A DNA stretch of 64,000 bases from a virus: positions 64,001 to 128,000 of the IMG/VR virus record IMGVR_UViG_3300023184_000030; one strand, 5' to 3'. The notes under the pieces are model-generated. The model saw only the letters and a program-made list of their open reading frames with translations, ran no database searches and was not told the DNA's origin. Shown here in pieces: positions 3,512 to 32,292 of the stretch. Each line of letters opens with the position of its first letter. The stretch's first letter is position 1. The position numbers were made by a program, and so were the translations under genes.

Positions 3512-5263
3512 TTATGTACTTGTTTTCGCTGTTGTTGTTGATCCTGCATTTCCCGTTGACTTTCCAGATACAGTAACAATGCTTCCTACGCTATATCTAT
3601 CCGTCAATGGTATGTATCCGCTAATACCATCACACGTTTTCCAGAATAGCCTAGGATTTCCGTTTGTAGTGCTAGCAGAACCAAGAAAAGTTAAATCAAC
3701 ATAGCAACTTTGGGTAGGAAAAGCGTTCATTGAAGGCTGATACCTAAATCTCATAAAATATTGTACCGATTGTATTGTTGTTGTTTTTCCTACTGTGAAA
3801 TCCCAATAATTAAATACCAATCCTGCTATTTTATAATTCTGCCCACTTATAGTTGTAGTATCGTTCAAGAATATTCTATATGTGTTGGTGTATCCTGTAT
3901 TATAAAGTCCTTCCACATTTTGCTCATATGAGGTAGGTATTCTAAGGAAAACCTCTTTACTAGCGGGAAGATTGTATGTGCTTGGTGTAACTAGGATCAT
4001 GTTGCTGTCCCATAAAGAAATAGATGTTAAATCGATTACGTTATAAACGGTTGGTGTAAATGATGTGGCTGCATCCCAAATTCTTGCAGTCAAAGTGATA
4101 GTTGAAGCATTGACCTCTCTGACCTTCTTAACCGTATAAAGATAAGGTCCTCCTGTAGCTCCAGCAGCCTGTCCTCCGGTAGATCCAAAAGTGGTCTGAA
4201 TATGTTTCCCTGAAGAAACAGATCCTCTTGCTTTAGCTGAGAATATTGGTGCGTTTTTAAGATCGAAAAATTCAAAAGCAGAGTCTTGAGTGCTAGAAGC
4301 TAGGATTGATATGCCTGATGCTGATGTAGATCCGCCAGAAGGGAGATTCTTAGTAGCATCGAAAACTAGCTGACCATATTGCGAAACTGTACTTGGCTGT
4401 ACTTTTATAGGAATTCTAGAAGTTAAAGAAGATGAAGATAGCGTTATGTTCGAAGAGGCTAACGAAAGGTTTCCCCCAAGCCCAATAGTTGTGTTTGAGT
4501 ATAGATAAAAATCACCAGTTCCCCCAATAGTAACATCCTGAATGGAGCTTATTTCTGCCCGATCCCCGTATAAAATGGATCTTGCTGTATATGAATCTAT
4601 ACTAAGACCGTTTAAAGCAGAGATCTCGAGATTGCCTGTTGAGTAATATCTTAGAGAAGCTGAATTTCCTACCGTTCTCCAATAGAAACCCGGTACTCCT
4701 GTTGAGGTTGCTCCGGTTTTAGAGAAAGTAAATATGGGTCTGGTTATTTGATCGTCGGTAGAAACTAATAACTTGCTTCTATTTGGATTTATTCCAGCTA
4801 TTGTGTTATAATCATCCCCTATAACTAAAGATGTATTAGATGCAGTTAAACCTGCCTTTATACCTATTGCATACTTATCAGTTACACCGGCAGGTCCTAT
4901 TATGCCACCATATACAGAAAGATATGGTGAAGTGAATAAAGAATATCCACTGTATGCCCAAGAACCCCCAGTACCTAATGTATTTACTTTATAATCACTA
5001 GTGCTAGAATCTATCCACAAGTCAAAAGGATTACCTGAAATTGGTGCAGCATCAGATTTAGTCCAAACAGTACCTCTTAAACCAGTAGTTCCTGTTGCAC
5101 CCTTTCTCCCTGACGGACCATCATATCCGGCTGAACCCTTAGGTCCTTGATGTCCATTAGGTCCAACGCCAAAAGAAAGTATCTGGTCGAAATTATAATT
5201 GATCTTTCCTTTTATCTCAGAAGCTGAATCACCAGCAAAAATATATTTAGTATTAAAGTGCAT
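3512..5263 (-). CDS. Collagen-repeat tail/baseplate fibre protein, paralogue 3 (583 aa)
   Basis: N-terminal GD..KINYNFDQI motif, then Gly-X-Y run GPNGHQGPKGSAGYDGPSGRKGATGTTGLRG and RGTVW. Confidence 0.7.
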   Translation of the reverse strand: MHFNTKYIFAGDSASEIKGKINYNFDQILSFGVGPNGHQGPKGSAGYDGPSGRKGATGTTGLRGTVWTKSDAAPISGNPFDLWIDSSTSDYKVNTLGTGGSWAYSGYSLFTSPYLSVYGGIIGPAGVTDKYAIGIKAGLTASNTSLVIGDDYNTIAGINPNRSKLLVSTDDQITRPIFTFSKTGATSTGVPGFYWRTVGNSASLRYYSTGNLEISALNGLSIDSYTARSILYGDRAEISSIQDVTIGGTGDFYLYSNTTIGLGGNLSLASSNITLSSSSLTSRIPIKVQPSTVSQYGQLVFDATKNLPSGGSTSASGISILASSTQDSAFEFFDLKNAPIFSAKARGSVSSGKHIQTTFGSTGGQAAGATGGPYLYTVKKVREVNASTITLTARIWDAATSFTPTVYNVIDLTSISLWDSNMILVTPSTYNLPASKEVFLRIPTSYEQNVEGLYNTGYTNTYRIFLNDTTTISGQNYKIAGLVFNYWDFTVGKTTTIQSVQYFMRFRYQPSMNAFPTQSCYVDLTFLGSASTTNGNPRLFWKTCDGISGYIPLTDRYSVGSIVTVSGKSTGNAGSTTTAKTST

Positions 5264-5278
5264 CTATTTATTTTTAAT

Positions 5279-7282
5279 TTATACCCCTGAAACTGTTATT
5301 TGATAAGCTGTTTGACTCGATAAAGATAAGCCAGCAAATTCTATTGTTCTTGCCGTTCCAGATCCCGTAACGGTTCCCTCGATAGTAATTCCTGCTGGAT
5401 AATAAATTAAGGTAGAAGTTACAAAGCTTGGGGAAGAAGCGAAGGTTACAGCCAATTCTATTTTAGTAACCCCACTATTAAAGGTTGCAGTTAATGCTGA
5501 GGTTGGTGATATATTAGCAGGTCCTGCAAGGTACGAGAAAAAAGGAAGAGTTGAATATAATGTTGCACTTACTATATAAATTCCACCCGAATTATAAACA
5601 TAAGAATTTGATGCAAATGTATTATATAAAACACCGCACTTAGTTCCTGATATATTACCTCCATATGCACTATAATAAACAGAAAACCATTTTCTGTTAC
5701 CCGCAGTAGAACCAACACCAGCTATATTCATTATAGTAAAATCCACATGGGAAGCTCCTAGAGCATTAGAAGATGTTAAATCCACAATCTGCGGATATAT
5801 CGAAGCGGGTGAATTTGAAAATGTATTTGATGTATTCAGTCCTAAGAATCTAATAAACTTGCTTTCAGTATCTATTCTAACTCTAAAGTTGATTGCCTCA
5901 TAGTTATTTAACATATTTAGCCATCCCCCATTATTATTACTTCCGCTTCCTCCAGTTGCTGGAGTCCACAGGCAAATTCCTATTGGATCGGAAGGTCCAA
6001 ATGTTGAAGGACTGATAACAAAATCAGTTCCGTTATTTGCATTTATCCTAGCTGTTGATGTTCCGTCTGAATAAATTGCACCTGGTATTATAGTGTACCA
6101 TTTAGTTGAAGCTACAGACAGTGCACTAGCGGTAACTGTTGGGGTAACCGGCTGAACCGGCTGTATTGAATTAATTCTCTTATTATAATAAACCTCTCCA
6201 TTAGCCTTCACATCAAATATAACTTCACTTGATGTATAGGCTAAGAATAATCTGGAAACATTACTGGATATTACGTTTGCTTTAAATCTTAGATTACCTA
6301 CGCCTGACTTAGTACTTTCTAACCAAAGAGGGGGAAGATCACTATTTAGGGTATTAGTAAAATCGAAAGCTATAGGCATCGTAAACACATTCCCTGAATA
6401 TGTGTTAGTGATATAACTTATGTTTCTATTGGACAGAAAAGAAGTACCTGCAGAAGAGAAATTTAATATAAATTTTCCTCCTGTCGTTACAGAAAGACCC
6501 TGATTTCCTGATAAGTTTAAATTAAAACCAGTAGATCTATATGTTGAATTCCCTCCTCCATTGGTAGTTGTAGAAAGCTTTAATTGTCCAAATGGTATAT
6601 CAAAAAATAACGAATCCCCATTTTTCCAAGAAAGACCATATTTCAAAGCAGCTGTTGTTAAAGTAGAAGTCCAATAAAATCTAGGGGTCTTTGTATTAAA
6701 TGAGGTAATTGCTGAATAACTACCCTTGGTAAATTCCATCAGATTTTTTCCAGTAGCTCCACCGTTTATTGCAATAACAGTCTTAGAATATTGCGGATTT
6801 GCAATCGGTCCAGCAGATAATGGATTATCGCTAAGTACTAAAGTGTAGCTGGATGGATTTACCGAAGTTAACGTGTACCCATTATATGCAGAATTACCTG
6901 CAGAGGTGGGGATATTAGAATAAACTCTAAATATGTCCTGCGAAAGGATTCCGAATCCGTATCCGTTCCATCCAGAGGAAGAAAATTGATAGATCTGATT
7001 ACCCGATCCTGTTCTTGTATTTAACCAGAAGTCATTATTAATATAGCCAGTTAATCCTGGATCAGTAGCTCCTATGGTCCAGATGCTACCTCTACTTCCC
7101 ATATCTCCATAAGAACCGACTGGGCCAGTTTGTCCGGATTCCCCCTGCGGACCCCGGTCTCCTATCTTTCCATAAGGACCACCACCAAAAGTTAATATAT
7201 CAGAAAAATTAGAGTTGACCTTGTCAGCTAAAACTTTTTGATTGTCCCCTTCTTCTATTCTTAGTAATTTTAAATCTGGCAT
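5279..7282 (-). CDS. Collagen-repeat tail/baseplate fibre protein, paralogue 2 (667 aa)
   Basis: N-terminal GD..KVNSNFSDI motif, Gly-X-Y run GPYGKIGDRGPQGESGQTGPVGSYGDMGSRG, then RGSIW. Confidence 0.7.
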   Translation of the reverse strand: MPDLKLLRIEEGDNQKVLADKVNSNFSDILTFGGGPYGKIGDRGPQGESGQTGPVGSYGDMGSRGSIWTIGATDPGLTGYINNDFWLNTRTGSGNQIYQFSSSGWNGYGFGILSQDIFRVYSNIPTSAGNSAYNGYTLTSVNPSSYTLVLSDNPLSAGPIANPQYSKTVIAINGGATGKNLMEFTKGSYSAITSFNTKTPRFYWTSTLTTAALKYGLSWKNGDSLFFDIPFGQLKLSTTTNGGGNSTYRSTGFNLNLSGNQGLSVTTGGKFILNFSSAGTSFLSNRNISYITNTYSGNVFTMPIAFDFTNTLNSDLPPLWLESTKSGVGNLRFKANVISSNVSRLFLAYTSSEVIFDVKANGEVYYNKRINSIQPVQPVTPTVTASALSVASTKWYTIIPGAIYSDGTSTARINANNGTDFVISPSTFGPSDPIGICLWTPATGGSGSNNNGGWLNMLNNYEAINFRVRIDTESKFIRFLGLNTSNTFSNSPASIYPQIVDLTSSNALGASHVDFTIMNIAGVGSTAGNRKWFSVYYSAYGGNISGTKCGVLYNTFASNSYVYNSGGIYIVSATLYSTLPFFSYLAGPANISPTSALTATFNSGVTKIELAVTFASSPSFVTSTLIYYPAGITIEGTVTGSGTARTIEFAGLSLSSQTAYQITVSGV

Positions 7283-7312
7283 CTTTTTCTATGGAATCTT
7301 AATAAGTTATTG

Positions 7313-7320
7313 TATATATC
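7313..7320 (-). promoter_or_regulatory. Putative late promoter GATATATA
   Basis: Motif about 38 nt upstream of ATG 7282; overlaps the TGA stop of the upstream gene. Confidence 0.65.
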
Positions 7321-8890
7321 AATAAGTGAAAGATCCCCCGGAACCTCCAGTAGATCCTATAGCACCAATCGATGAGTAAGGTGCATAAGCACGATAATAA
7401 ACTGTGGTTAAACCAGATCCTGTCATTCCCCTAGCAACAGTAAGTTCAACGGTTGGAGATAGGAAGGGTAATGTTACCTTAGTTACGCAAGAAGCTGAAG
7501 CCCCTGTTCCTACCCCAATAAACTTAAACCCCGAAGCTGATGTTGTTGGAGAATCTGAGCTATTATGAACCGTTATATCTATTGATTCCCCCATTCGAAG
7601 TCCTCCAGATCCACCCCATCCTAAATCAGAATCGTTATATAGGCCAATTCCGACATGTTGTCCCGAAACTATAGCCGGATTGATTATCATAGTATTTCCG
7701 TTATCTAAAGGGGACCCTACTGTTGCAGAAGTCCTAGAAATAAAATACCAATTTATTGCAGTAGCTCCTGAATAACCAATCGTTCCCGCACTAGTAGACG
7801 GATATGATATACTCTCCAATGTTTTATTCATTTTAAGCTTTCCCCTGGTTGAAAGCCAAACTTGATTTCCTGTAGAATTCTCTAGTGTTAAGTGATAAAC
7901 ACTTTGTGAAAGTGTGCTATATGTGTCACCTGTTCTTGTCGATCTGAATCCAGCTGTTCCTGATGGTGTTATCTGTGTATGTGGGGATGAAGATGCTACT
8001 GTTGCTATTGATTTAATAGGATCAAGGAAACCTCCAGATACCCCAGACACGTTAAGGTACTTACTTGTTACATTAAACTGTCCAGTTGAGCTAATATTAT
8101 ATCCACCAGTAGCATAGATGCCTGATCCTGATGTAGCTCCGTAATTTATATCTGTACCTTTTTGTGATTCCATCTTCAGAGAGGAAAACCCTGATTCAAA
8201 TCCTCCGGAAACACCAACATCTAAAGTACCACCAGGAACTCTTATACCTAATGAATTGTCTGTTGGTATAGGGGAAGGCCAATAGAAAAATGGATGCAAA
8301 GAGTAATCCGCTATGGTTCCATCTGCCAAGTCACTCCTAGAAAATTCTAAAAGAGGTGAATCATTCACGGTTGAATCTGTGGAAATAGAGAATTTAGAAA
8401 GCAATTCATTTATAACACCATTCTCTGGTGTAACATCACTTAATACGAATAAGTAATTCTTGGGCAATACCTGGGACATCTGTATAGCAGTACCAGTTCC
8501 TCCTACGTAGGTGCTACCTCCGTTATATGTAAAATTGTCTATCCTGAATAGATCTGCTCCTGATCTTATATTATATCCAGTGGAATTCCATCCAGTTAAT
8601 TCTAGGATGTATATGTCACTGCTTGTTGAATCTATCCAATAGTCTCCTTCCTGAGCTGATCCAGCAGGAGCTACAGAAGTAACGAACCATCTAGTTCCCC
8701 TTGCTCCATCTAATCCAGTAGGCCCAAAAGTTCCCGAATCTCCTATTGCTCCTCTGTCGCCAGTAGGGCCTAAAGTACCCTGACTTCCTCCGTGTATTTC
8801 CACGGTTTCGTCAAAGTTATTGTTCAGCTTATTTATTAGTTGGCTTTGGTTGTCGCTGTAATCTAAGGCCTGTATATTAGTATTTGGCAT
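7319..8890 (-). CDS. Collagen-repeat tail/baseplate fibre protein, paralogue 1 (523 aa)
   Basis: N-terminal SD..KLNNNFDET motif, Gly-X-Y run GSQGTLGPTGDRGAIGDSGTFGPTGLDGARG, then RGTRW. Confidence 0.7.
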   Translation of the reverse strand: MPNTNIQALDYSDNQSQLINKLNNNFDETVEIHGGSQGTLGPTGDRGAIGDSGTFGPTGLDGARGTRWFVTSVAPAGSAQEGDYWIDSTSSDIYILELTGWNSTGYNIRSGADLFRIDNFTYNGGSTYVGGTGTAIQMSQVLPKNYLFVLSDVTPENGVINELLSKFSISTDSTVNDSPLLEFSRSDLADGTIADYSLHPFFYWPSPIPTDNSLGIRVPGGTLDVGVSGGFESGFSSLKMESQKGTDINYGATSGSGIYATGGYNISSTGQFNVTSKYLNVSGVSGGFLDPIKSIATVASSSPHTQITPSGTAGFRSTRTGDTYSTLSQSVYHLTLENSTGNQVWLSTRGKLKMNKTLESISYPSTSAGTIGYSGATAINWYFISRTSATVGSPLDNGNTMIINPAIVSGQHVGIGLYNDSDLGWGGSGGLRMGESIDITVHNSSDSPTTSASGFKFIGVGTGASASCVTKVTLPFLSPTVELTVARGMTGSGLTTVYYRAYAPYSSIGAIGSTGGSGGSFTY

Positions 8891-8893: not shown

Positions 8894-11800
8894 TTATATC
8901 TTAGCTATTCTTATATTAAACATTAAAGAGTAATAAAAACCAAATTCGGTTGGATATTCAAACTCATATATTAAATTAGTGATCGGCGTTAATTTATAGT
9001 TGTTATCTATAAAATATTCCAATTTATATCTATCACTAGAAAATAGATCGCCTCTAACTATTTCAGAATCGGGAATTGCTGCGTTTGCAATTTTCTTAAC
9101 ATAAAGATCAAATACGTCACCTCTGTATATAGGAGCAACGTTTAAATCGATATAAGTGTTGATATCATCATTTATTGATAGTGGATCGCCTACTCCAAAC
9201 TGTGATATTATATTATCGATAAAAACTTTCTTTATCCCTGAATTTAATAGGAATCTTCTAAGTATTCGATCTAATCTTATTATTCCTTTTATCTTTTTCT
9301 GTTTTGGAAAATTTTGCCAAACAACTTCTGCATTCGAGAATATCTTAAGGTCGAGCTTATTATAATCTACTCCAGAAAGGTATGGACCAACAGAGCCTAT
9401 ACCAGTTCCTGAATCTGCCTTACCTATTTCTTGAACGCTCTTGATAAAGCTGTCAATTCTAGAATTTAATCTACTTACATTTGTGCTACCTGTTGTTCTA
9501 GAAATCTGGAGAGTTATATAATTATTAGCCTGTATAGGATCAGGGGTCTGCATAACTTTAGAGCCAAAGAAAGTTTTATATTCTTTCATGGATCTTGTTC
9601 CTGCAACAGGTGATCCTGAATTACTACTAACATATCTGTCATAATATCCAGGATCCCATGAAGAAGAAAACAAATTAAAATTCTTTCTTGATATTGGGGT
9701 TAATCCTATTAAAGGATAAACTGGGCCTTCCGGATATGAGCTTGCAGCAGCCAATATATTAGATCCTTCTGAAACCTTGGTGTATCCTAGATTTCTTGAA
9801 ATACCAAAGTACTGTTTATCTGGTGCAAAATTACAGTTTCTGAAAGAAAGATCTATTGAATCAGATCCTATTAATGTGTCGGTCTTATCTCTGTCGAAAT
9901 GTATGACCTTTCTGAAGATTGGCTCGTATTCGCCCGAGTATCTGGTTAAAATAGAGGGTATTGTTGGATCTGGTGTTCTTATAGCATAACCAGTTTCTAC
10001 CCTTGCACCCTTTAAAATTCGAGGTCCGTTATACTCTTTAAAAACCAAAGATCCGCTAGGTTTAGTTATCTTAGTAGGTTTTTCGAAATAAAGCTCAAAA
10101 CCATTAGAAGTAAATATGGTTGATCCCGAAGTAGCGTCCTGTTGGTAGCTGGAGTATTTTATATAGGGTGAGCTTTTATTAAATTTATCTGCTATATAAG
10201 AAACAGAGCACCTCGAGAGTAATTCTTTATAATAGTTAGATCCACCTCCTATTTGTGTAACTGGCTTTCCCCTATATACAGAAGATGGTCCAACAGGAAC
10301 TGTCACGGGATTAGATGTAGAAAAGGGAATGGTAAATAAGTACGCTGATCCGGTAGCTACCTTTCCAAATTCTATAAAACTAGGACCAACCCCGGTTGGC
10401 CAAGGGTAAGTTGTTGATAAAGTTGAAACACTAAAACTTCCAGTACCAGTAGAGCTTGGACCTCCGGTAGCACCATCCGCATTGGGAACATATGTTGTGT
10501 GGATTTCCTCTCTTAGATCTGTATCATAATCAGAATTTTTTACTATGTTTATTACCCCAGTAGTTCTAGTTGTATTAACAACACTACCTGATACCAACGA
10601 AAGATCCAATGCAGCACTTAATTTTATATCGTCTACAGAATAAAACTTTTGTGAAGAAACCAGGGGAGACCTTAGTTTCTCTTTATCATTTAAAGTGTAA
10701 AGAAGCGTGTAATCTAAAATCGGATTACCCCCTGTTCCTCCGGTATAACCAAGATCAAAAGTTTTTTGATCCTTTATAACAAAGTCACAAACGAAAAGGA
10801 CAAACTTCTGCTGATCGTTTTCTATTACTTCGTATTTAACTGGAGCTTGTATAATTGTATTATCCTCAGGAATTGCTCTTAATATGGCAGAGAACTTATA
10901 ATCCTCGTAGCCTCTATAATATTTTATGTACCTGTCTGATTCAACAGATCCATCAAAAAAAGTATCAGATCTTTTTTTCAATACTATTTTACAACCTCTG
11001 AATATCGTCTCATAATATCCTGATGCTTCGTTATAAACAAGAGGAGTGAATAGCTCCTTGGTGTAAAATGAGGCATCACTAAATTCTAAAGCATAATCAG
11101 AGGGCTCCACAGTAAAGTATGAAGCTAAATATAAAGCATCATATGGGTCGGAGCTTCTAGCTTTATCTAAATCTATTTTATAAGGTAGATAACTATTCTG
11201 ATCGTTCATAAACTCTTTAGGAAAATCCCTAGGAGGTTGCTCAAGCAAAAACCATTCGTGAGTTAAATATTTAGGATCAGGAGTTATTCTTTCAAAACTT
11301 GGTGAAAAGTTAGTAGGGGAAAAAGCTGGGCTACTATTTAGCCTATATCGATTTCCTCTAGAATCTGTTCCCAGAGAAGATCCCCATTTACTTATATAAG
11401 GAACTATTTTTGATATATTAGCTCTCTGCGTTGTGAAATTCTCTTTCAGATATTCATATTCGGTATTAATCTTGCCGTAATAAAATACCTCTTCCTTTGT
11501 TGGATCTACATTCTTAGGATCTAGAAGAATCGCCTGTATGCCTATAAACCCATTAAAGGCTTCTAAGTCTCTTGTGTATCTGATGCCAGAATATGTAGTA
11601 GTAGAAGAAGAATAAATAACGTCAGAATATTGGGCAGGAAAGACAACGACATTTCCTGATGAAGAAGTTCTAGACTGAATGATATTTAATGCCGCAGATG
11701 ATTCGCTCAGATTTAAACTAGGATCGGAGACAGCAAACGAAGTATATCCAGTTGCGCCATAAAACAAATTACCGGCATTATAGATATTTCCAGTTGCACC

Positions 11801-21495: not shown

Positions 21496-21502
21496 ATATA
21501 AT

Positions 21503-22270
21503 ATGGCTAACAGAAAAAAAAGAATTACTGACGAAGAATTTTATGAAGCTTTCCCTCCTGGATATCAATCTACTAGCGGATCTAGATTCGATTTACAAAA
21601 ATTAAAGGTTGACTTTAAATTTAAAAACGAGAATCAAAAGAATCTCGCAAATCTGATAAATGATAATAAGATTACTATTGTAGCTGGTCCAGCAGGAACA
21701 GGTAAAACTTATTTAGCATGTGCTCAAGCTTTAAAGCTCATGAAGAGCGACCCAAGGTTTAAAAAAATAATACTTGTAAAAAGTGTAACAGTTTTAGAAG
21801 GGGAAGAGGTAGGATTTCTTAAAGGGGATCTTAAAGAAAAAATGTTACCATTTACCATATCTTTCCTTGATAACTTTCATAAAATCATTGGTGAGGGGTT
21901 AACCCAAATTATGTTGGATCAGGGTTACATCGAGGTATTGCCTTTAGCTTTTATTAGAGGAAGATCGATAGACAACGCAATAATAATAGTAGATGAAGCC
22001 CAGAATATAACTCAGAAAAATATGAGATCTACTATGACTAGGATAGGCACAGATACTAAGATGATTATTACAGGTGACACCAAACAGATAGACATGAAAA
22101 ATCCAAAGTTATCATCTCTTGATCTAGTTGTTAAAATATTCGAAAATAAAGATAATATCGGAACAATGCACTTTGGTGTTAATGATATAGTTAGGGATCC
22201 GATAGTAAAACTTATAGAGGAAACATTCGATGATTGGGACGAAAAAAATTCAAAGCCAGGTAAAGGATAA
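21503..22270 (+). CDS. phoH: PhoH-family ATPase
   Basis: Walker A GPAGTGKT, GFLKGDLKEK, RGRSIDN, DEAQN, TRIG, GD..QID, VRDPIV; ATG 21503 preferred to TTG 21461. Confidence 0.95.
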   Translation: MANRKKRITDEEFYEAFPPGYQSTSGSRFDLQKLKVDFKFKNENQKNLANLINDNKITIVAGPAGTGKTYLACAQALKLMKSDPRFKKIILVKSVTVLEGEEVGFLKGDLKEKMLPFTISFLDNFHKIIGEGLTQIMLDQGYIEVLPLAFIRGRSIDNAIIIVDEAQNITQKNMRSTMTRIGTDTKMIITGDTKQIDMKNPKLSSLDLVVKIFENKDNIGTMHFGVNDIVRDPIVKLIEETFDDWDEKNSKPGKG

Positions 22271-22280: not shown

Positions 22281-25200
22281 TTATCCTTTATTAAATGTTG
22301 AATCTGGATTATTAGGGATAACTATAGCAGATCCGAATTGGCCTCTGTTAGATTGCAATATTTCCATTTCCTGATACATTAGATCTTTTCCTAATCTCAT
22401 TGCTTGATAATCTCTTGCAAGGAAAGGAGGATTAGGATATCCATAATCACTAGAATCAACGAAATCAGGTCGCAGATCATCAGGTCTTTTGTCCTTATGA
22501 TTTATTACTTTTATAAATCCTGGTTTAGAAACCTCATAGATATTTCCTGCAGAATCTTCTACCTGATTGTATATCGTATAATATCCAGGATCGACAAAGG
22601 TGTAAATAAAATATGGGCTTCCTTTTATGTTAAGAAGCTCGTCTTTTGTTTCGGAGTTGCTTAATATCCATTTGTTATTTTTCTTACCGTAAATGTTAGA
22701 AGCATAGTTATTAAAAACAACAGTAGATAACAGCGGTATCTCCATATAGTTATCCGTTGAATGAACATCACACCAGGTCCAAGCTCCTGATCCGGGTCTA
22801 GATATTATATTACCTAAATTTATACCAAGTTCTGGCTTATATTGTTCTATTAATGTGGCAAATCCTCCGGTAGCACCGAAGTAAACAAGGCTCCCCGTTC
22901 CGCCTGTAGTTCCGCTGGTATTTATACCAGATGAAAATATATTAGATCCGCTGTCTTTGGTAAATGTTATATCTCCTTCAAATAATCCAAGATTTTCCAA
23001 ATCGAGATTTTTTCCTGAATCGTTTGTTTTTAATAATGCAACGTTATATCCGGTTAAACCTGGCGTGTTTACTTTATAAGATGATATGAATTGATTGTCA
23101 TCAAGCTTATCGAAATAAATAATCCCCATTTCCCTATCAAGTACGCCTGTACCGTTTGAGAATATATTTTTAACTGTACCCTGATCTGTTATTTCTGCAG
23201 TGTAAAGATAGTTTTCTCCGGTTGATCCCAAAACTATTTGATTAAAAGCATAGTCTCCCGTTAGGCCTTGTCCATAATCTCCGATTATTGTATTTATATA
23301 ATATCCTGATCTATCTTTGGCTGCGTATATCTTATTAATATTTGAATTAGATGATGTTCCGCCTATGCCTATTATTTCACCTCTTATAAAATTTCCTGTT
23401 GCCCCTGCTATAATATAAAAGGGGTAGCTTGAATAATCCGATGGCGATGGATGAATTAAGCCAGCACCAAACATGTCAAAGGAACCTTTAGATTGACCAG
23501 TAATAAGAATACCTGATTCATTATCGGATGATTTTATACCGCTGATATAAAATCCACCGGTAGTTCCTGTTGTATTCACAACGTTACTTAAAGAAAGATT
23601 ATCGCAATCTAATTTGACATAAGAGCCAAAGATATTTTCAGACGAATTCCCTATAATACTAGGTGATGTACTTAAATCATCGTTTCTATCCCAAGCATTC
23701 TTTAGTGTGTTAAATGTTACTGGCGTACTTGCTTCGTGTGTAATAGCAAGATTCACATGATATTTGCTAGAATCAACCGACGTGTAAGCAGTTCCACCTG
23801 GATAGGTTGATGTTGGTACAAAATGCCTAAATGAATTTATCCTGTATGATTTTTGGATCGAGCTATTATAATCTCCAGTAATACCGGCAAACGATGAAAT
23901 GTCACCTAGATCTCTTCCTATTTTAGCAACAAATATAGCTTTAGAATCTGGTTTAGCCCCGTCATTAGCTATAGTGTATGGATAAACGCTAGGGGTATGT
24001 AGTGAAATTTGAATAGTAATAGAGGTTCCGTTTGTATATGGAAATGCTGCTGTCGCACCGCTCTGATAGGTTGTACGTATTCCGTATGAATTTGAATCTC
24101 TATAAATCTGATCTATTCTATAGTAAGCAGTGTTACCCCCCTCTATGATTGACAAAGTTTGACCTGTCAGTCTGTAGTTAATATTCAAAGATTGATCGAC
24201 TCCTGACGAGTCTTCAAAATTAAGATAGACCAAATTTACATTATTGTAGCTACCCCCCGTTCCTGCGGGGAATCCAATAAACCCAAAGTCACAGTAAGTG
24301 CTTCCCACTGAATCACCGCTACCTACTGAAACTTTCCATGGTCTATTTAAAACCAGGGTACCAAATGCAGGTACACCTATTCCGGGGTATGCCCCCGAGG
24401 TAGCACCAGGTACATTGGGATTAGTAACTCCTACAGGAGCTCCAGTTGCACCTCCTGTTGTAATCGGGCTTCCATATGCTCCCCAAACAAATTCTCCGAT
24501 CTCTATAAATCTATTAAATATTCCAGAAGCATATATGTAAAGTCCATCCTCACTTGAGCATATACTCTGAATCTCTGTGCTAAATCCTTTGAATGGCAGT
24601 ATTGATTCAACCTTTCCCCTTTCTGAATAAGCCACTATAAATCCAGTTTTACCATTATTCTCGGAATTGTGTGTTGATAAAACACCAGAATTTAAGCTAG
24701 GACCAATATCTGATAATATAGCCGGAGTGTTGTCTGAATAATATCCAAATTGAACCGAATAGCTCCCTGTATAAATATCAGGTTCTACACTGCCAGAAAT
24801 ATAATATCTTTTCTCCCCCAGAAATGTTTGTGAAGTTGATGATGTTATGCTAACCATTCCAATATTTCCTGATGCTCCTGCAATATATGATATCGATTCA
24901 TCCCATAAAGGAGATTGTATACTTTCTGTTATCAGATCCTGTTCAAATGTCGGGATCGAAAAATTATTCCAATATGGCTGTTTACCTGCTCTTCCATCAG
25001 CGATATCACTTAATTTTGTAGTCAGGAATAGATTACGGGGATCGAGTCCAGGATGCTTATATTCAAGAAAAGAATTATCATAAACCATCCATTCAGGATA
25101 ATCCCATGTGTATTTATTTATTTTAGGTAGAGGTGCTCCACCTCCCGTCGCTGTATAATATGTGAAATTCCATCCAGTAGCACCAGCATATTTCGATGAT

Positions 25201-26294
25201 GCATAAACGTGGGGTAAGTCATAGTCGAAAAGCGAAAGTGAATTATACTCAAGAACCCAAAAATCATTTTCATGTATGAGTAATCCATCTTGGGATGTAT
25301 TGTGACCTATTAGCTCTATACCAAGCACAGAATTAGAACCCAGCGAAGAATTCAAGGTATTATATTGAGTGTGTGTAGTGCCATTAAAATGCCAAATACC
25401 CGTGCCTTGACCTAATTCACCATCTCCCTTTGAATAAAAAACATGTCCATTGTTTCTTGACTTTACTGAAGTTATAGATCCTCCGCTAACTCCATAATTC
25501 CAGAATTCAACTCCATCAAAATAAGAAAGACCTACATCCGTTCCAATCCAAAGATTGCCATTCTCGTCAAAATCTAAGCAGTAGACATTGTCTGATATTA
25601 TTCCACTTGTGCTAGTGTTATAAACCTTTGCCTGCTGAATATATTTAGATCCATTGGTTAGAGTTAGGGTCTGCAGTTTTCCCTGCGGAACAACAAAAAG
25701 ACCCTCAGAGGTTCCCATATAGTAAAAATAGTCCTTACCTTTATATCCTTTTGTTTCGATATCATATATGTGAGGCCAAGTGTAGTCATCAATAGTTTCG
25801 TTCCATTGATCAGTTTCTTTAAGGTAGTAGAATAATCTTCCCCCTGTTGCTCCTTCTATTCTTGTGTAAGCAGATGCACCAGTTCCCCCTACTCCATTAA
25901 GAGGGTTTATGAATGCAAGTATGTCATCTCCAAAAGGACAAGCATAAATTAAAGAAACCTCCTGCTGCTGGTCAAATGTTCCAAGTGCTTGGAATGTCCA
26001 ACTGTCACCTTCATCAACCTTATTGGTATTGATCCAAAAAACAGCAACCTGATTTATACTTGGGTTACCAGCAGTTGGTCCCTGTGCTACCCCCACCCAG
26101 GCTTTATCCTCAGGATCTATTGATATACATCTAGTATCTAGATAATAGGGGGAAACCTGAGGTACAGCAGAGTTTGTGCTGTTATAGTATTCCCAGCTTG
26201 ATCCATTAAATCTCCTAACATCCTGGCCGGAAGCCCAAACATAAAATTCTTGATCTAAATCTATTTGATTAATATAAAGTGAGCTATTAGGCAT
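22281..26294 (-). CDS. Large beta-propeller (Reg_prop-like) + C-terminal PKD-like virion protein, candidate receptor-binding protein (1337 aa)
   Basis: NVYCLDFDENGNLWIGTDVGLSYFDG propeller blades; YTFVDPGYYTIYNQVEDSAGN PKD/Ig-like end; many GxTG motifs. Confidence 0.65.
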   Translation of the reverse strand: MPNSSLYINQIDLDQEFYVWASGQDVRRFNGSSWEYYNSTNSAVPQVSPYYLDTRCISIDPEDKAWVGVAQGPTAGNPSINQVAVFWINTNKVDEGDSWTFQALGTFDQQQEVSLIYACPFGDDILAFINPLNGVGGTGASAYTRIEGATGGRLFYYLKETDQWNETIDDYTWPHIYDIETKGYKGKDYFYYMGTSEGLFVVPQGKLQTLTLTNGSKYIQQAKVYNTSTSGIISDNVYCLDFDENGNLWIGTDVGLSYFDGVEFWNYGVSGGSITSVKSRNNGHVFYSKGDGELGQGTGIWHFNGTTHTQYNTLNSSLGSNSVLGIELIGHNTSQDGLLIHENDFWVLEYNSLSLFDYDLPHVYASSKYAGATGWNFTYYTATGGGAPLPKINKYTWDYPEWMVYDNSFLEYKHPGLDPRNLFLTTKLSDIADGRAGKQPYWNNFSIPTFEQDLITESIQSPLWDESISYIAGASGNIGMVSITSSTSQTFLGEKRYYISGSVEPDIYTGSYSVQFGYYSDNTPAILSDIGPSLNSGVLSTHNSENNGKTGFIVAYSERGKVESILPFKGFSTEIQSICSSEDGLYIYASGIFNRFIEIGEFVWGAYGSPITTGGATGAPVGVTNPNVPGATSGAYPGIGVPAFGTLVLNRPWKVSVGSGDSVGSTYCDFGFIGFPAGTGGSYNNVNLVYLNFEDSSGVDQSLNINYRLTGQTLSIIEGGNTAYYRIDQIYRDSNSYGIRTTYQSGATAAFPYTNGTSITIQISLHTPSVYPYTIANDGAKPDSKAIFVAKIGRDLGDISSFAGITGDYNSSIQKSYRINSFRHFVPTSTYPGGTAYTSVDSSKYHVNLAITHEASTPVTFNTLKNAWDRNDDLSTSPSIIGNSSENIFGSYVKLDCDNLSLSNVVNTTGTTGGFYISGIKSSDNESGILITGQSKGSFDMFGAGLIHPSPSDYSSYPFYIIAGATGNFIRGEIIGIGGTSSNSNINKIYAAKDRSGYYINTIIGDYGQGLTGDYAFNQIVLGSTGENYLYTAEITDQGTVKNIFSNGTGVLDREMGIIYFDKLDDNQFISSYKVNTPGLTGYNVALLKTNDSGKNLDLENLGLFEGDITFTKDSGSNIFSSGINTSGTTGGTGSLVYFGATGGFATLIEQYKPELGINLGNIISRPGSGAWTWCDVHSTDNYMEIPLLSTVVFNNYASNIYGKKNNKWILSNSETKDELLNIKGSPYFIYTFVDPGYYTIYNQVEDSAGNIYEVSKPGFIKVINHKDKRPDDLRPDFVDSSDYGYPNPPFLARDYQAMRLGKDLMYQEMEILQSNRGQFGSAIVIPNNPDSTFNKG

Positions 26295-26345: not shown

Positions 26346-28058
26346 TTAGTAGCCAAACTCCCATCCTCTTTTAGGTTGTGGATCTGAGGTAACATTTAAT
26401 TGATGTGGGTTTGCTATTCTATTTGTATTGAAAGAAATCCAATTTGATCTACCAGGGGTATTGGGAACACCAGGGTAACTCTCATAGGGAGGCCAGGGTC
26501 CATTATCGCTTAAATCCACAGCAGTTATATAAGGGGAACTGCCTCTATCTATTATAGCTATCTTAAGCCCGTTAAATGTATTGGCGTCATATGATAAAGC
26601 TCCGGTAAGTCCTGATGCCCAAGCATAATCAGGTGATGCAGAAGCAACGATATTAGAGTCATAGCCAGCTAATACCAAAGCATTATTTATAGCTGTTGCT
26701 ACACCCGTTCCATCTGGGTTATCCTGCATAAATACTAGATTTTTATCGGGGGAATTCCCTAGTCCCGCATTAATCGTGGGATCCGATACCACTACATTTA
26801 CTACGACATCTAAACCAGGATCTATACCATCTATACTACCATCATAGCTAAATTTTATTGTTAAATTTAGCTCAATGCTAGGTAATCCGGTAAAATTTGA
26901 CGAAGGAAGACAAGCTCCTCCGAGACCTCCGCTTGCTCCCCCAGCACCATCAAGTCCTATTCTATAAGCTGTGGGTTGTTGGACACTCGAAATATATAAC
27001 TCTAGTGCTCTAGAAGATTGATAACCAAAAGATGCTTCATTAAATATAAGTGCATCTACTAAATCTCCAGTCCAATACCTGTTAACTAGCAGCGAATTTC
27101 CATATGCAAACACATCACCAAAGTAAAATATATTACTAAAATAAGTTCCAAGATCCCCGGGGATCATATAGTTTCCAACCATATATCGGCTTAAAGATTC
27201 CCATCCTGTTGGGGTAACCCCTAGAAATTGGAATGCTGTCTTGGAAGCAACATATTGACCAGGATAATATCCATATCTTCCTGGCAAAAATTCAATATCC
27301 TGGGATGACGAAAAATAGCCAACAATCTCACCTTGAGCTCTAAATTGGGTATTATCAATAGGTAATGCCGAATAGTAATTTGTATTAACCAAGAATATGT
27401 CACCAACCCCTGCCATTCCCACTGCACCCGTTTTAATCCCTGTATTAGTAATATAATAGTAATTTGCTCCTATTGTATAAACATCAGTTAGATAGTTATA
27501 TGGCTCAAATCCACCATTTTTACTGTATGCTACGTTGGTATTAGATACCGATGTGTTACCAAGAAAGCTATTAAACACCACCGAAGATGTTGATGTATAT
27601 GTAGAATATGCCGCTCCTGAATCAGATCCGGTCAGGTTAAGCCAACTTAAAATGCTCGTAGATTCATTTGAATTGGTCCCCGTGAATCCTGCTACACCAG
27701 CAAGGGTCCAGCTATAATAAGAAAGACTAGCGGTAGATCCTACAGCTGTATATGTTACCGCTGTTCCCATTGGAATAGTAGTGACCGTGGGAATGTTACT
27801 AGTTAATGTTACTGAAATATTCTCTGGTGTTACTATGATTATATTTGTATCCTCCTTAAATGTATTAATCGGTCCCTTTGTTATAGTTAATTTAGCACCA
27901 AATCCAGCAGTGGAGGGGGAAAGATATCTAACAATAGGATTAGTTGCCGTGGCACCTGTCGGGGTTCCCCCTGGAAAATTCCAGACTCTACCTGTAGGAC
28001 TACCTAATGAGGTATCCTGATACAAAACGTAATCTCCTTGGGCTATTGATATCGACAT
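26346..28058 (-). CDS. PKD-domain virion protein (570 aa)
   Basis: N-terminal GDYVLYQDTSLGSPTGRVWNFPGGTP...NPIVRY PKD signature; second Ig-like repeat (YYSWTL). Confidence 0.7.
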   Translation of the reverse strand: MSISIAQGDYVLYQDTSLGSPTGRVWNFPGGTPTGATATNPIVRYLSPSTAGFGAKLTITKGPINTFKEDTNIIIVTPENISVTLTSNIPTVTTIPMGTAVTYTAVGSTASLSYYSWTLAGVAGFTGTNSNESTSILSWLNLTGSDSGAAYSTYTSTSSVVFNSFLGNTSVSNTNVAYSKNGGFEPYNYLTDVYTIGANYYYITNTGIKTGAVGMAGVGDIFLVNTNYYSALPIDNTQFRAQGEIVGYFSSSQDIEFLPGRYGYYPGQYVASKTAFQFLGVTPTGWESLSRYMVGNYMIPGDLGTYFSNIFYFGDVFAYGNSLLVNRYWTGDLVDALIFNEASFGYQSSRALELYISSVQQPTAYRIGLDGAGGASGGLGGACLPSSNFTGLPSIELNLTIKFSYDGSIDGIDPGLDVVVNVVVSDPTINAGLGNSPDKNLVFMQDNPDGTGVATAINNALVLAGYDSNIVASASPDYAWASGLTGALSYDANTFNGLKIAIIDRGSSPYITAVDLSDNGPWPPYESYPGVPNTPGRSNWISFNTNRIANPHQLNVTSDPQPKRGWEFGY

Positions 28059-28080: not shown

Positions 28081-28088
28081 TATATATC
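28081..28088 (-). promoter_or_regulatory. Putative late promoter GATATATA
   Basis: 30 nt upstream of ATG 28058. Confidence 0.65.
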
Positions 28089-28101
28089 CTGATTAAAACT
28101 A

Positions 28102-31100
28102 TCATGGATAAAGTTGGTATGTGAATCCAGCAATTAATAATCCACTACCACCTATCTGTGAAGGAGGTGAAGAACTTGCTGAATTGAATACTTCTGAATT
28201 ATTTATAGAAACATTTATCGGTGGGCTATTTAAAGGCAGATTCCCGCTTTCGTTAGGAATAGGTCGGTAATAAAAATTCTGAATATTGGTATCCGCTGAA
28301 TTGTTTAGTTGATCAGATAATTCTCCTATAGTCAAAGAAGCCGATCCTGGCTGTATAGTCATTCCTGTTGGATATGGATAAAATTCGTTGCCTGTGCTGA
28401 TCTTTAAGAAATCCCCGGGAGTTATGTTGTGTAGTTCATATCCGCCAAGCCAATCGTTATTAAATTCGTAATCAAGCCACGTATGTGCATACCCTTCGTC
28501 CCATCCATTATCAGTGAATACGTCCCAATTTAGCTTTTTAGTTCCCCAATACTTTAGATTAGCGTTGGGTAAGGATTCACTAGATTCTGACCAATAAACA
28601 TAGGTTTCAGCAGGACTAGATCCTCCTGATAATTCACCAGAATCCGAAATTATCGAAATTGATCCAGTAGTTTCGTATGTTAGTAATACCCCGTTTTGAT
28701 CCGCACCCATTTCATCGGGTGCAGCAATAACTAAAGTGACAGGATCATTTCCTGGATCTGTACAAGAAGCAAAATAATCAGGATAAGTCCTAAGTGAATT
28801 AACAGAAGATGTTATACCATTTACCGTCCTGTATAGGGAATCCCCAGAATTGCTGGAGCCTATCAATCTTCCGCTCACATAAACTGAAATACTTCCCGCT
28901 CCGGTAACATATTGATTAGTAAATATAGAGGAATCTACAGATAATCTGGAAGGTCCAGTTAAGCCTATTGTATTGTTCCACGAAGAACTCATTATTGTAG
29001 GTATGGTAAAACTATTATTAGAACCAGAAGGAACCGTTATTATCCATCTTCCTACTAATTGTGGTATAGTATTCAATAAAGTTACTTCTTCACCTGTGCT
29101 AAGGTTATGAGGCGTAGCACATATCACTGTGGCAAAACTATATTGGCCAGCTATAATTAAATAAGATGTTATCTCCGTTATAGCTATATTCTCTTGTGTA
29201 AATGAAATATACCCCGTTGCTCCGATAGGATCTGTGTTTACCTTAACATAAGCATCTTGGCCCTCTTCAGATTTGTTTCCGTATGTAGCAAAATCTAGAA
29301 TCTCGCTAGGTATGGTCTTTTCTAAAATCTCTATTGTCTCTCCCTCAGCAGGATATTCCCATATTGAATTATAATCTTCCCATCCCTTAAATACATTTCT
29401 CCAAGTGTAATCCTCAACCTCTCTATATCTAGTCCATGCATCAATATCAATGATCTTCGGACTAACTGTTATAGCTCCATTCTTTATCGCTACCGTTTTA
29501 GCGTTAAAGGCATCATAGACGTTGCATGTTACCTGATAAACTCCAGTGTATGGTACAAAGTGGGCTAAGGTATAAAAGTCCAGTATAGACCCTCTAAATT
29601 GGAAATTATAGGGACTTCCTTGTTGTGTTGCTGACTTATTTATTATCCACTCAATATCAACCATATTAGAAAAATCTACGTTTCTCCAATTGAGTAAAGA
29701 ATAATTCTGTATAGTTGAAAATAATGATGCTTCATCAGTGTTTACAGTAGTTGAGTTATCAAGGAAAATCGTATAAACCCCAGTTGAATAGCTAACTGCT
29801 GTTACAGTCCCAAATATGTTTGTTGGTTTGTATAAAACTCTACTCCCAACTTTAAATACCGGGGTCAAAAGGGAAGACCAATTTATATTTAATTCGTCCC
29901 AACTCCATCTGTCTAAAATAAGCTCCAATACTATTGGCATGCCCAGTGGGGTATCGTATGTTAATCCTGTTGTTGGATCAACATAAGCCGGAGGATCATA
30001 TTTCCCATCACCCAATTCAAGCAATTCCCCATTCTGTTTGAGATCATAGAAATTAGTTATTGCATTCAATAAAGAATTGTTCTGAGGAGCTGTGTATATC
30101 TGTTGATTTGATAAAGGATCCACTATATTGCCCAGATCAGAAAGCTCTGCGGGAGCAACCTCTATTACTCCATTGAGAAGGGTTTTATTGGTTGATGAAT
30201 AATAATATACCGGTGAAGTCTGCTGTGGAGTTACGTTCCAGATTAAGTTAGGTCCGCCAGAGGTAACCCCATTATTAATTATACCTAATGGATCTATCTG
30301 GGAAAGACCTGGATCTGTTGTTATGTAAAAATCAGATCCTGCTGTAGAAATACTAAATTCATAGGTGTTACCAGCATTAATATTTAATACAGGATTGGGC
30401 CCGGTTAATCCAGTTGCTCCGGTAAGTCCAGTTATATAAAGAGCACTTCCGGTTCCACCCAATACATTTACATAAGCATCAAATGTATTATAATAAGAAG
30501 AAGGAGTCTGTATAGAAGTGCTTAAAGGTCTGATGGAAAAATTTCTAAGATCCCCGATAAATCCAAAATCTGGGGTAACCTTAATGTCAGTATAAAATCC
30601 AGATTCAATATCGGGTCTTTGCATGACATCTGTCCATGCTTTAGTATTATAAACATTGAAATAAATACCTTCACCTGTTATATCTATAATTCTTGCATTC
30701 AGAGGTAGATAATCTCTCTTAAGCCTTTCCTTAAGAGCGAACATTTTTATAAGAACTTCTTCTTGTGTAAATTGAAAATTATCAACAACCCCAGGATATC
30801 CATAATCTGAATCATATCCAGTTAATTTATTTATATCATAATACAGTCCAAATAGCGAGGTCTTTTTATAAGTTCTGCTAGGTAGAATTGTGGTATCTGA
30901 AGAAACATCAAGAACATATTGTCCATCAGCATTCGGACCATATGTCTGAACCAATTTATATTTACCTGAATTTGGATTATCTAAAACATCACCTACCTGA
31001 TAACTCTGACTATATCCAGTAGACTGTTGTTCTTTTATCTGATTTAGGAATCTTTGATTCTGCTGAAGTGGCGATTCTAATCTTGCGCTTTGATACTGTA

Positions 31101-32292
31101 GATTTAGCCAATACTCTTTTATCCTTAAATCCTGATAACCAAAGAATCTAATCGCATTGATCAGACCTTTATAACTTCCTATATAGGGAAATATTTCTTC
31201 ACCTGCTATTAATAGTTCTTTTCTCTTGTCATTTATTTCTATGTAATTAGGAAGGGGTTCAACCGGATCGTGATCTCTAAGTATAATTGAATCGTCCTGA
31301 TAGAAAGCTCTACCCATGTTTTGTAACATGACGCTAAATCTTTCATCCTCGCCAACTATCTCTCCATAAAAATCCATCTCGATTATTTTTACCGGAGTTC
31401 CGGTACTAATATCTTCTATGATTAATTTTCTCTCGTAGATATTGGATGCTAAGTCAGTTGCATTAATAGCAACATTTATAGATAAAGCCTCAGAATTTAC
31501 TGAAGATGTAGAAACGTAACCATTACCAGAAAGGGTATCGGTAGGATCGAGATCCACATTATAGACTAGATTGGGATAACTAACTATCAAAGGGTATCCG
31601 TCTCCACCCTCAAGCTGGTCTTCTATTTTATATGTGAATAGGATTTCTGAAACATCTGTTTCGCCATAGCTATCATTATACCATCTGGATCTCCATTTAC
31701 CAGCGGTAGCCCCAGTGGCTCCTGTATGAGGAAGCCCATATTCTAGGTTACCCCCATTATTAAGCGTCTGTACTATAAATATTTGTTGGTTCTCATAAAG
31801 TCCGGAAGAAACCGGATCAAAATATATGTTACCTTTAAAATACCCACCCGGTCTATTAGAATATGTTGTACTAAAATAAATTTGATTATTTAGACTTATT
31901 AATCTTTGGCCATTAATGGTATCAAGTTCAAAGCTAACAGTTAAGTATGTTGAATTATTTACAACAGCGGATATTTTAGCTTCAAATTCCCCTTGGTTTG
32001 CTATTCTACCCTTAATGTATACATCTGCGCCATTAAGTATAGCGCTGTTTATCGAATCGCCCCAAGCTACAATATTAAATCCATTTACATCGGATATATT
32101 CAAATCAATATAACCCGGATCAACGTCCAGCTGACTAACTGATACTTGACCGTCAGAAGAAACCGATGATGAAGTTACGTACGTAAACTTTTGATCAAGT
32201 TCACTAGGACCTGTTGCCCCAATGTAATTAAAGTTTAGTGGGCTTCCAGTCTTATCATAAAAATTAAGCCTTCTATAGAAAAATTCTGACAT
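28102..32292 (-). CDS. Large baseplate wedge protein (gp7-like position) with inserted accessory domains (1396 aa)
   Basis: IFPYIGSYKGLINAIRFFGY.DLRIKEYW resembles tail protein I/gp7-type wedge segments; lies just downstream of the gp6-like gene. Confidence 0.55.
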   Translation of the reverse strand: MSEFFYRRLNFYDKTGSPLNFNYIGATGPSELDQKFTYVTSSSVSSDGQVSVSQLDVDPGYIDLNISDVNGFNIVAWGDSINSAILNGADVYIKGRIANQGEFEAKISAVVNNSTYLTVSFELDTINGQRLISLNNQIYFSTTYSNRPGGYFKGNIYFDPVSSGLYENQQIFIVQTLNNGGNLEYGLPHTGATGATAGKWRSRWYNDSYGETDVSEILFTYKIEDQLEGGDGYPLIVSYPNLVYNVDLDPTDTLSGNGYVSTSSVNSEALSINVAINATDLASNIYERKLIIEDISTGTPVKIIEMDFYGEIVGEDERFSVMLQNMGRAFYQDDSIILRDHDPVEPLPNYIEINDKRKELLIAGEEIFPYIGSYKGLINAIRFFGYQDLRIKEYWLNLQYQSARLESPLQQNQRFLNQIKEQQSTGYSQSYQVGDVLDNPNSGKYKLVQTYGPNADGQYVLDVSSDTTILPSRTYKKTSLFGLYYDINKLTGYDSDYGYPGVVDNFQFTQEEVLIKMFALKERLKRDYLPLNARIIDITGEGIYFNVYNTKAWTDVMQRPDIESGFYTDIKVTPDFGFIGDLRNFSIRPLSTSIQTPSSYYNTFDAYVNVLGGTGSALYITGLTGATGLTGPNPVLNINAGNTYEFSISTAGSDFYITTDPGLSQIDPLGIINNGVTSGGPNLIWNVTPQQTSPVYYYSSTNKTLLNGVIEVAPAELSDLGNIVDPLSNQQIYTAPQNNSLLNAITNFYDLKQNGELLELGDGKYDPPAYVDPTTGLTYDTPLGMPIVLELILDRWSWDELNINWSSLLTPVFKVGSRVLYKPTNIFGTVTAVSYSTGVYTIFLDNSTTVNTDEASLFSTIQNYSLLNWRNVDFSNMVDIEWIINKSATQQGSPYNFQFRGSILDFYTLAHFVPYTGVYQVTCNVYDAFNAKTVAIKNGAITVSPKIIDIDAWTRYREVEDYTWRNVFKGWEDYNSIWEYPAEGETIEILEKTIPSEILDFATYGNKSEEGQDAYVKVNTDPIGATGYISFTQENIAITEITSYLIIAGQYSFATVICATPHNLSTGEEVTLLNTIPQLVGRWIITVPSGSNNSFTIPTIMSSSWNNTIGLTGPSRLSVDSSIFTNQYVTGAGSISVYVSGRLIGSSNSGDSLYRTVNGITSSVNSLRTYPDYFASCTDPGNDPVTLVIAAPDEMGADQNGVLLTYETTGSISIISDSGELSGGSSPAETYVYWSESSESLPNANLKYWGTKKLNWDVFTDNGWDEGYAHTWLDYEFNNDWLGGYELHNITPGDFLKISTGNEFYPYPTGMTIQPGSASLTIGELSDQLNNSADTNIQNFYYRPIPNESGNLPLNSPPINVSINNSEVFNSASSSPPSQIGGSGLLIAGFTYQLYP

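Follow-up and report, generated by a model that had tools for sequence, protein, structure and literature searches.

Freeman et al. are said to have described, in 2023, mycobacteriophage-encoded glycosyltransferases that O-glycosylate the phages' own virion proteins. Short motifs containing G-x-T can also recur for structural reasons, as exemplified by the Asp-box (S-x-D-x-G-x-T-W), a beta-hairpin motif that is found in unrelated folds including beta-propellers. SgtA from C. difficile, in which a GT-A domain (residues 1-260) is followed by four TPRs (262-358), O-GlcNAcylates Thr in G-P-T triplets of short BclA3 peptides in vitro and takes Ser as well as Thr (PMC7157674). A GT2 domain followed by TPR is also present in GmaR (PMC9638930). 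Enzymes of the Aah/TibC family recognize a strand-loop-strand shape, not a sequence (PMC3835316), and TibC modifies Ser, not Thr (PMC4358343). Here, we describe the tetrapeptide motif G-x-T-G in the tail proteins of an uncultivated giant phage, based on a stretch of 64,000 nucleotides (the window; bases 64001-128000 of the 172,849-bp viral contig IMGVR_UViG_3300023184_000030), for which a preliminary description had proposed G-x-T-[GAS] as a virion-wide recognition site, most simply a Thr acceptor for a modifying enzyme. The excess of G-x-T-G is genuine and reflects selection on the protein, and it marks the tail periphery, i.e., the fibres and the baseplate periphery together with a putative LamG protein and the insertion on the outside of the sheath, not the whole virion.

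The block studied consists of ten consecutive minus-strand open reading frames (ORFs) at 3512-32292 of the window (genome 67512-96292), which lie downstream of a gp6-like baseplate wedge gene and encode 9176 amino acids (aa). Expected counts were obtained from 1000 shuffles per protein and, for the pooled block with its three 11-triplet collagen runs masked, from both a global and a local 30-residue shuffle. Outside the collagen runs, G-x-T-G occurs 45 times, compared to 6.9 copies expected from the global shuffle (z = 16) and 8.2 from the local shuffle (z = 13), which bears out the predicted enrichment over shuffled controls and, as the excess survives local shuffling, excludes an artefact of local composition. 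Pooled over the block, G-x-T-G ranks first among all residue triples over nine spacing shapes, and 45 of the 134 TG dipeptides are preceded by Gly at a distance of two residues, although the overall frequency of Gly is 0.089 (p = 2e-15, binomial). The remaining 30 ORFs of the window contain 3 copies (4.0 expected), in agreement with the near-absence that had been noted for its non-surface proteins.

The motif is specific at each of its fixed positions. Position 1 is Gly (45 versus 7.1 expected), and position 3 is specific for Thr, the Ser version G-x-S-G not being enriched (11 versus 8.7). At position 4, Gly ranks first and Ala second (15 versus 4.1), while Ser is barely above chance (12 versus 8.2), so that the proposed G-x-T-[GAS] holds for Gly and Ala, but hardly for Ser. 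The x position is filled by A, L, G, S, T, P, M, or I, with D, E, N, Q, and R found in none of the 45 motifs outside collagen. Furthermore, G-x-[ND]-G is depleted four-fold (3 versus 13.1) in the Gly- and Thr-rich (G/T-rich) proteins of the whole genome, while five comparison genomes show no such depletion. An avoidance of deamidation at N-G and D-G was considered and is unsupported, as N-G is close to its expected count (59 versus 62), and the other ORFs of the window show just as low a value for D-G (0.68).

In coding-strand frames 0, 1, and 2, the DNA pattern GGNNNNACNGG is found 50, 0, and 3 times, respectively, compared to 0, 5, and 0 times on the opposite strand. The codons are mixed across motifs, as had been stated before, and differ even inside chains. 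Since the motif is confined to the coding frame and its codons are mixed, selection acts at the protein level, and DNA-level signals such as a repeat, a methylation site, or a recombination site are excluded. Long G-X-Y runs are limited to the three of 11 triplets, located at the N-termini of three small fibres. They contain 5 of the 50 motifs, and collagen, as already suspected, does not explain the other 45. While a Gly periodicity of three surrounds the motifs, a single further Gly in register accompanies 13 of these 45, and the other 32 stand alone.

Compared to SgtA and its substrate BclA3 (as well as BclA of Bacillus), the acceptor context G-x-T-G is the same here, and the phage encodes a protein with an SgtA-like order of domains (GT-A/GT2, then TPR), the likeness having been judged by domain architecture only:

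Genome 36337-37602, minus strand: GT2+TPR protein, 421 aa (GT2 at 35-128, TPR at 207-310)

SgtA acts on short peptides, and isolated triplets would in principle be recognizable. However, BclA3 contains long GPT repeats, whereas here 45 of the 50 motifs are isolated loops outside collagen and the collagen runs are not Thr-rich; the SgtA gene adjoins its substrate gene, whereas the gene for the GT2+TPR protein lies far from the block; and SgtA accepts Ser, whereas the motif is specific for Thr. The phage also has an enzyme of the Aah/TibC family (TIGR04414; substrates AIDA-I and TibA), and some G-x-T-G sites are strand-loop-strand links, but the acceptor in that family is Ser, again in contrast to the Thr-specific motif. 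A phage transferase that modifies its own structural proteins in the cytoplasm would resemble the mycobacteriophage system, whose acceptors, however, are reportedly Ser/Thr-rich C-terminal tails on capsid and tail-tube proteins, unlike the dispersed loop motif described here, for which the capsid protein is not enriched. Asp-box-like sites are limited to one or two, e.g., S-E-N-N-G-K-T-G at residue 544, and the Asp-box flanks (S at -4, D at -2, and W at +3 from the first Gly) are not enriched around the motif: position -2 is T, A, or Y, with no D, and +3 is Gly by definition.

The ten ORFs of the block, all on the minus strand, are as follows, with G-x-T-G counts given against those expected:

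28102-32292, minus strand: 1396-aa baseplate-periphery protein; 8 versus 0.82 (p<0.001); chain GLTGATGLTG at 622-631
26346-28058, minus strand: 570-aa protein; 2 versus 0.70, not significant alone
22281-26294, minus strand: 1337-aa multi-beta-propeller protein, the richest carrier; 14 versus 1.35 (p<0.001)
20352-21266, minus strand: 304-aa protein; 2 copies, not significant alone
18123-20327, minus strand: 734-aa protein; 2 versus 0.18; pair GTTGAYGMTG at 174-183
14459-18109, minus strand: 1216-aa protein (phrog_29329) within the block; 1 versus 0.58, not enriched
8894-14434, minus strand: 1846-aa protein; 8 versus 0.70 (p<0.001); chains GSTGPTG and GYTGGTG
7319-8890, minus strand: 523-aa fibre; 5 copies, 2 of them inside the 11-triplet collagen head (residues 35-67)
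5279-7282, minus strand: 667-aa fibre with collagen head; 3 versus 0.89 (p = 0.06), not significant alone
3512-5263, minus strand: 583-aa fibre with collagen head; 5 versus 0.85, 2 of them inside the collagen run

The counts of 14, 8, and 8 that had previously been made by hand for the 1337-, 1846-, and 1396-aa proteins proved exact, and all of the chained examples quoted with them were found. With the looser G-x-T-[GAS], the 1337-aa protein contains 20 motifs (3.0 expected). The gene for the 1396-aa protein follows the gp6-like wedge gene, with one 176-aa ORF between the two. The three small fibres are paralogous over their N-terminal 200-300 residues (blastp), and their collagen heads have mixed Y residues and are not rich in G-x-T. 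A PhoH-like gene (21461-22270, plus strand) lies on the opposite strand in the middle of this tail-fibre operon, its position being occupied by an opposite-strand ORF of approximately 220-270 aa in most relatives.

Genome-wide, significant carriers are the 1337-, 1846-, and 1396-aa proteins, the fibres, the 734-aa protein with its pair, the tail sheath, and a 397-aa protein, the latter two being encoded outside the window. The sheath (1116 aa; genome 156064-159414, minus strand) contains 5 motifs (0.6 expected), every one of them within a clade-specific middle insertion that is not covered by tblastn matches to isolates. This insertion also holds a six-triplet G-X-Y run, although the sheath is no trimeric fibre. 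The 397-aa protein, a putative LamG protein (the label is unconfirmed, and Pfam assigned no family), has 3 motifs (0.6 expected). The original term 'virion-wide' is too broad, as neither the major capsid protein nor the inner baseplate is enriched, nor are the Gly-rich inner proteins of 891 aa (0 versus 0.6) and 624 aa (1 versus 0.8), and within the block the 1216-, 667-, 570-, and 304-aa proteins are not significant individually. The neighboring head and baseplate genes of the window are:

32826-34550, minus strand: gp6-like baseplate wedge protein (phrog_219, E = 2e-32); 0 G-x-T-G; upstream edge of the enriched block
59980-61701, minus strand: major capsid protein (phrog_138, phrog_28442); 2 versus 0.68
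61728-63692: prohead protease

The phage is a T4-like myovirus with a GC content of approximately 35%, and its contig is approximately 63% complete. For a 100% complete relative of 348 kb, the genes compared are 79-93% identical to those of this phage. By sheath similarity, the nearest isolate is the Flavobacterium phage MaF61 (40%), followed by Lak megaphages and other huge-phage genomes. For a comparison between genomes, G/T-rich proteins of at least 300 aa were used, the T4 set comprising baseplate, fibre, sheath, and capsid proteins:

T4: 6 versus 6.0 expected (1.0-fold)
This phage: 54 versus 9.6 (5.6-fold)
MaF61: 9 versus 2.9 (3.1-fold)
LR756502: 31 versus 14.9 (2.1-fold, p = 2e-4)
LR756500: 13 versus 8.2
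LR756504: 7 versus 5.3
LR756501: 16 versus 10.3

The last three correspond to a 1.3-1.6-fold enrichment. There is a mild general tendency, on top of which comes a strong clade-specific enrichment, and the value for T4 shows that the enrichment is no general property of phage fibres.

A total of 159 homologues of the 1337-aa protein were identified, and the 93 full-length ones were used for motif counts, yielding a mean of 11.5 motifs (range 3-19) compared to 1.2 expected. Within this family, the motif is present in at least half of the sequences at eight alignment columns and in any sequence at 72 columns. At the core sites 136, 148, 371 (GATGWNF), 615, and 969, it is found in 76-93 of 94 sequences, x alone varying between the fixed G, T, and G. 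Similarly, in the 1396-aa family (40 members; 39 distinct motif columns), the motif persists at site 25 in 39 members, at site 612 in 37, and at site 1024 in 29, while two sites each are kept in the 304-aa family (34/42 and 40/42) and the 734-aa family (42/43 and 38/43). At 53 IMG/VR loci, the genes follow this order as well, and the 1396-, 1337-, 734-, and 304-aa families are likewise enriched, down to 32-37% identity. Beyond the clade, tblastn of the 1337-aa protein against isolated phages gave no match; no homologue was found in MaF61, Lak-A1, or three of the four huge-phage genomes tested, and LR756504 showed a weak partial match (E = 2e-9, approximately 105 residues).

Shared homology among the carrier families was not detected: hhalign probabilities between the 1337-, 1396-, 734-, and 304-aa families are below 1%, and blastp relates only the three small fibres to each other. 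These searches also exclude a shared repeat module, with self-alignment revealing nothing beyond weak blade repeats. Since the carrier families have no detectable homology, the enrichment is convergent, and the independent enrichment in non-homologous proteins that had been suggested from the window extends across a large clade. In homologues, the Thr of the motif is replaced mainly by S, N, and D, compared to S, V, and I for other Thr residues, and the G and T residues of the motif are conserved no more than other G and T residues. Motifs come and go around the conserved core, and extra motifs adjoin conserved ones instead of replacing lost ones (pooled odds ratio 0.34). Compensatory turnover is not seen in the 1337-aa family, where the association runs in the opposite direction, and appears in the 1396-aa family only as a register shift of one triplet.

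The predicted structures of two carriers were inspected, using AlphaFold models of residues 1-1200 of the 1337-aa protein (per-residue confidence, pLDDT, 82; predicted template modelling score, pTM, 0.84) and of the 1396-aa protein (pLDDT 61, a weaker model). The former contains beta-propeller-like domains, for which Foldseek returned beta-propellers such as BT4673 and DDB1. The motifs lie in coil in 12 of 14 cases in the 1337-aa model and in 6 of 8 cases in the 1396-aa model, compared to approximately 50% of all 4-mers, and 57% of them end within three residues of the next strand (38% of coil 4-mers). With regard to the earlier view of the motifs as loop insertions, the loop location is supported by both models, but the insertion only in part: conserved motifs occupy ungapped columns, and insertions account for only 11 of 50 (1337-aa family) and 8 of 26 (1396-aa family) rare motif columns. 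The motifs are not tight beta-turns as a class either, a possibility also raised at the outset, as only about one-fifth are tight hairpins.

Candidates for the modifying enzyme anticipated in the preliminary description do exist outside the window, comprising a TibC/Aah equivalog, a GT4, two GT2 proteins, and the GT2+TPR protein introduced above. The former four are encoded, together with a DUF6445 gene, in one operon at genome 164656-170125, in which the GT9-like gene is the equivalog:

Genome 164656-165837, minus strand: GT9-like protein, a full-length TibC/Aah-family O-heptosyltransferase equivalog (TIGR04414, 257 bits with a cut-off of 200; PDB 4RAP, E = 9e-50)

This protein keeps the catalytic Asp (D110), three of the four residues that bind the sugar (T226, K230, and W305), and the four Cys of the iron finger, while R286 is not kept; in relatives, the enzyme occurs in fused forms of 743-966 aa. 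Next to the operon lie the gene for the putative LamG protein and, cut off by the contig end (genome 171.8-172.85 kb, minus strand), a gene for a collagen-like fibre of (G-T-S)n and (G-S-A)n triplets with a C-terminal chaperone-like domain, the assembly break falling within the repeat.

The motif does not covary with the TibC-like enzyme. Two complete relatives of 430 kb (G004 and G006) lack the enzyme, yet their syntenic blocks contain 19 versus 4.9 and 20 versus 5.2 motifs (approximately 4-fold); LR756504, conversely, has the enzyme with no enrichment of the motif (16 versus 19.4). In LR756501, the TibC-like gene lies approximately 5 kb from a G-x-S collagen protein, and giant (GTS/GSS)n proteins (3487 and 2830 aa) are also encoded there. 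Because the family modifies Ser, the enzyme does not track the motif, and collagen genes are nearby, at a distance of two genes in this phage, Ser-rich (G-T-S)n collagen fibres are likelier substrates of the TibC-like enzyme than G-x-T-G. The 420-aa GT2 of the operon was also considered as a clade-wide enzyme and discarded, as it was found only in the closest relative.

The GT2+TPR protein has a different distribution. All ten of the clade genomes that were tested contain it, with identities of 61-93%, structural proteins being far less conserved (35-80%), whereas MaF61, LR756500, LR756504, and Lak-A1 do not; homologues in LR756502 and LR756501 share only 27-30% identity. Among solved or curated proteins, it is closest to glycosyltransferases that act on proteins or peptides (GmaR, 6e-5; SunS/ThuS, approximately 1e-4; TIGR04195, 1.5e-8). 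The gene is located among early-type or metabolic genes, at a distance of approximately 30 kb from those for the fibres, and is not preceded by the octamer GATATATA. Genome-wide, this octamer occurs in 31 copies on both strands and precedes 25 of 172 ORFs by up to 80 nt (mostly approximately 20-40 nt), among which structural genes are frequent and include those for the sheath, the neck, and several fibres (in the window, e.g., 5279-7282, 20352-21266, and 26346-28058). This octamer is probably the late promoter of the clade.

The best explanation for these data, which we nevertheless advance tentatively, is a structural loop motif without chemical modification. The two glycines would keep the backbone flexible; the x residue, which is small or hydrophobic (A, L, V, I, G, S, T, P, or M) and almost never charged, would probably pack on the domain; and the beta-branched Thr would lead into or cap the neighboring strand. 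Extra copies may have arisen through short in-register (9-nt) duplications beside existing ones, which could have produced chains such as GLTGATGLTG. The motif would then be a device for building or extending loops that the clade adopted in many unrelated, fast-evolving, beta-rich outer tail proteins, and we infer that its Thr carries no modification. Several observations argue for this explanation: Thr is required and Ser is not used in its place, the Thr is substituted by N, D, and S, the motifs lie in coil and cluster, and they show no extra conservation. S, N, and D are the usual turn residues before Gly, and the depletion of G-x-[ND]-G reads as if Thr had taken their place. Furthermore, MaF61 is mildly enriched despite having neither a GT2 nor a TibC-like gene, and the two complete relatives devoid of the TibC-like enzyme keep an enrichment of approximately 4-fold.

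A number of results nevertheless weigh against a purely structural origin. A structural habit explains neither the size of the effect (5.6-fold overall and approximately 10-fold in three proteins, compared to 1.0 in T4 and the low values of LR756500, LR756504, and LR756501) nor its placement, with Gly-rich inner proteins being spared. In the two models, tight strand-turn-strand links account for no more than 3 of 14 and 2 of 8 motifs, a fraction that does not exceed that of coil 4-mers in general. In the 1337-aa protein, three of the most conserved sites (at residues 136-151 and 371) lie in long loops that are modeled with low confidence and yet are invariant, which suggests an interface or a recognition site. 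In the same family, sites outside the conserved core number approximately 5.2 per sequence versus 1.2, an estimated 4-fold above chance. Finally, two glycosyltransferases of the protein type are encoded by the phage.

The second explanation, which we regard as possible though doubtful, is that G-x-T-G is the acceptor for a phage protein O-glycosyltransferase, which would place a sugar on the Thr of exposed loops and thereby form a glycan coat on the host-facing tail periphery. The best candidate enzyme, judged by its domains, would be the GT2+TPR protein of the clade core with its SgtA-like architecture and its protein- and peptide-glycosylating nearest relatives. Consistent with this, the enrichment is strong, acts at the protein level, and is convergent in non-homologous families; it is limited to outward-facing proteins and the clade-specific outer insertion of the sheath, and it does not occur in T4. 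Most motif loops are longer than a tight turn, new sites continue to arise, the conserved motifs sit in long loops that the model does not place, and x bears no charge. The clade genomes tested all contain the GT2+TPR protein, which is missing from MaF61, LR756500, LR756504, and Lak-A1, and LR756502, with its distant homologue, is 2.1-fold enriched. However, the co-occurrence of the motif with a clade-core gene represents a single evolutionary event and would be true of any core gene; it therefore carries little weight. MaF61 reaches 3.1-fold without the GT2 gene, whereas LR756501, with a distant homologue, reaches only 1.5-fold. SgtA takes Ser, yet G-x-S-G is not enriched, and the Thr of the motif is no better conserved than other Thr residues and is exchanged for N and D. 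The distance of approximately 30 kb between the GT2+TPR gene and the fibre genes, its early-type and metabolic surroundings without a GATATATA box, and the capsid protein, which is not enriched, also speak against a role as an acceptor. In its fullest form, a giant Bacteroidota-type phage clade would use its core GT2+TPR protein to sugar the tail periphery, with a sequon planted convergently in at least five unrelated families as well as in an outer sheath domain, a scenario that we likewise consider somewhat unlikely.

A neutral origin, in which in-register G-x-T duplications ('micro-collagen' slippage) are tolerated in surface loops and inherited without selection, appears improbable. While the chains, the Gly periodicity of three, the clustering of extra copies by existing ones, and the several collagen-like genes of the phage would fit such slippage, 32 of the 45 motifs are single with no further Gly in register, and many single sites are invariant over 35-45% identity. 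Moreover, the collagen runs of the phage are not themselves rich in G-x-T, given the mixed Y residues in the heads of the small fibres and the (G-T-S)n of the large fibre, the codons within chains differ, and the counts require no tandem DNA repeat. Least probable of all is another docking or recognition element (one that contacts a decoration or assembly protein, binds a glycan through its loop, or receives another modification such as phosphorylation), for which invariant motifs in long loops left unplaced by AlphaFold, a behavior expected of parts that fold on a partner, and the limitation to outer proteins would speak, but for which no partner was identified and the motif is very short, with sites in many different structural contexts.

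If the G-x-T-G motif is purely structural, it provides a clear case of a clade-specific short motif that unrelated proteins adopted convergently, and a warning that enrichment beside glycosyltransferase genes is by itself no proof of a sequon. If, instead, it is an acceptor, no earlier sequon for virion glycosylation would have been defined in a phage of a Gram-negative host, and the glycan-coated faces of uncultivated phage particles would become predictable from sequence alone, with a bearing on host recognition, protease resistance, immune recognition, and phage engineering.

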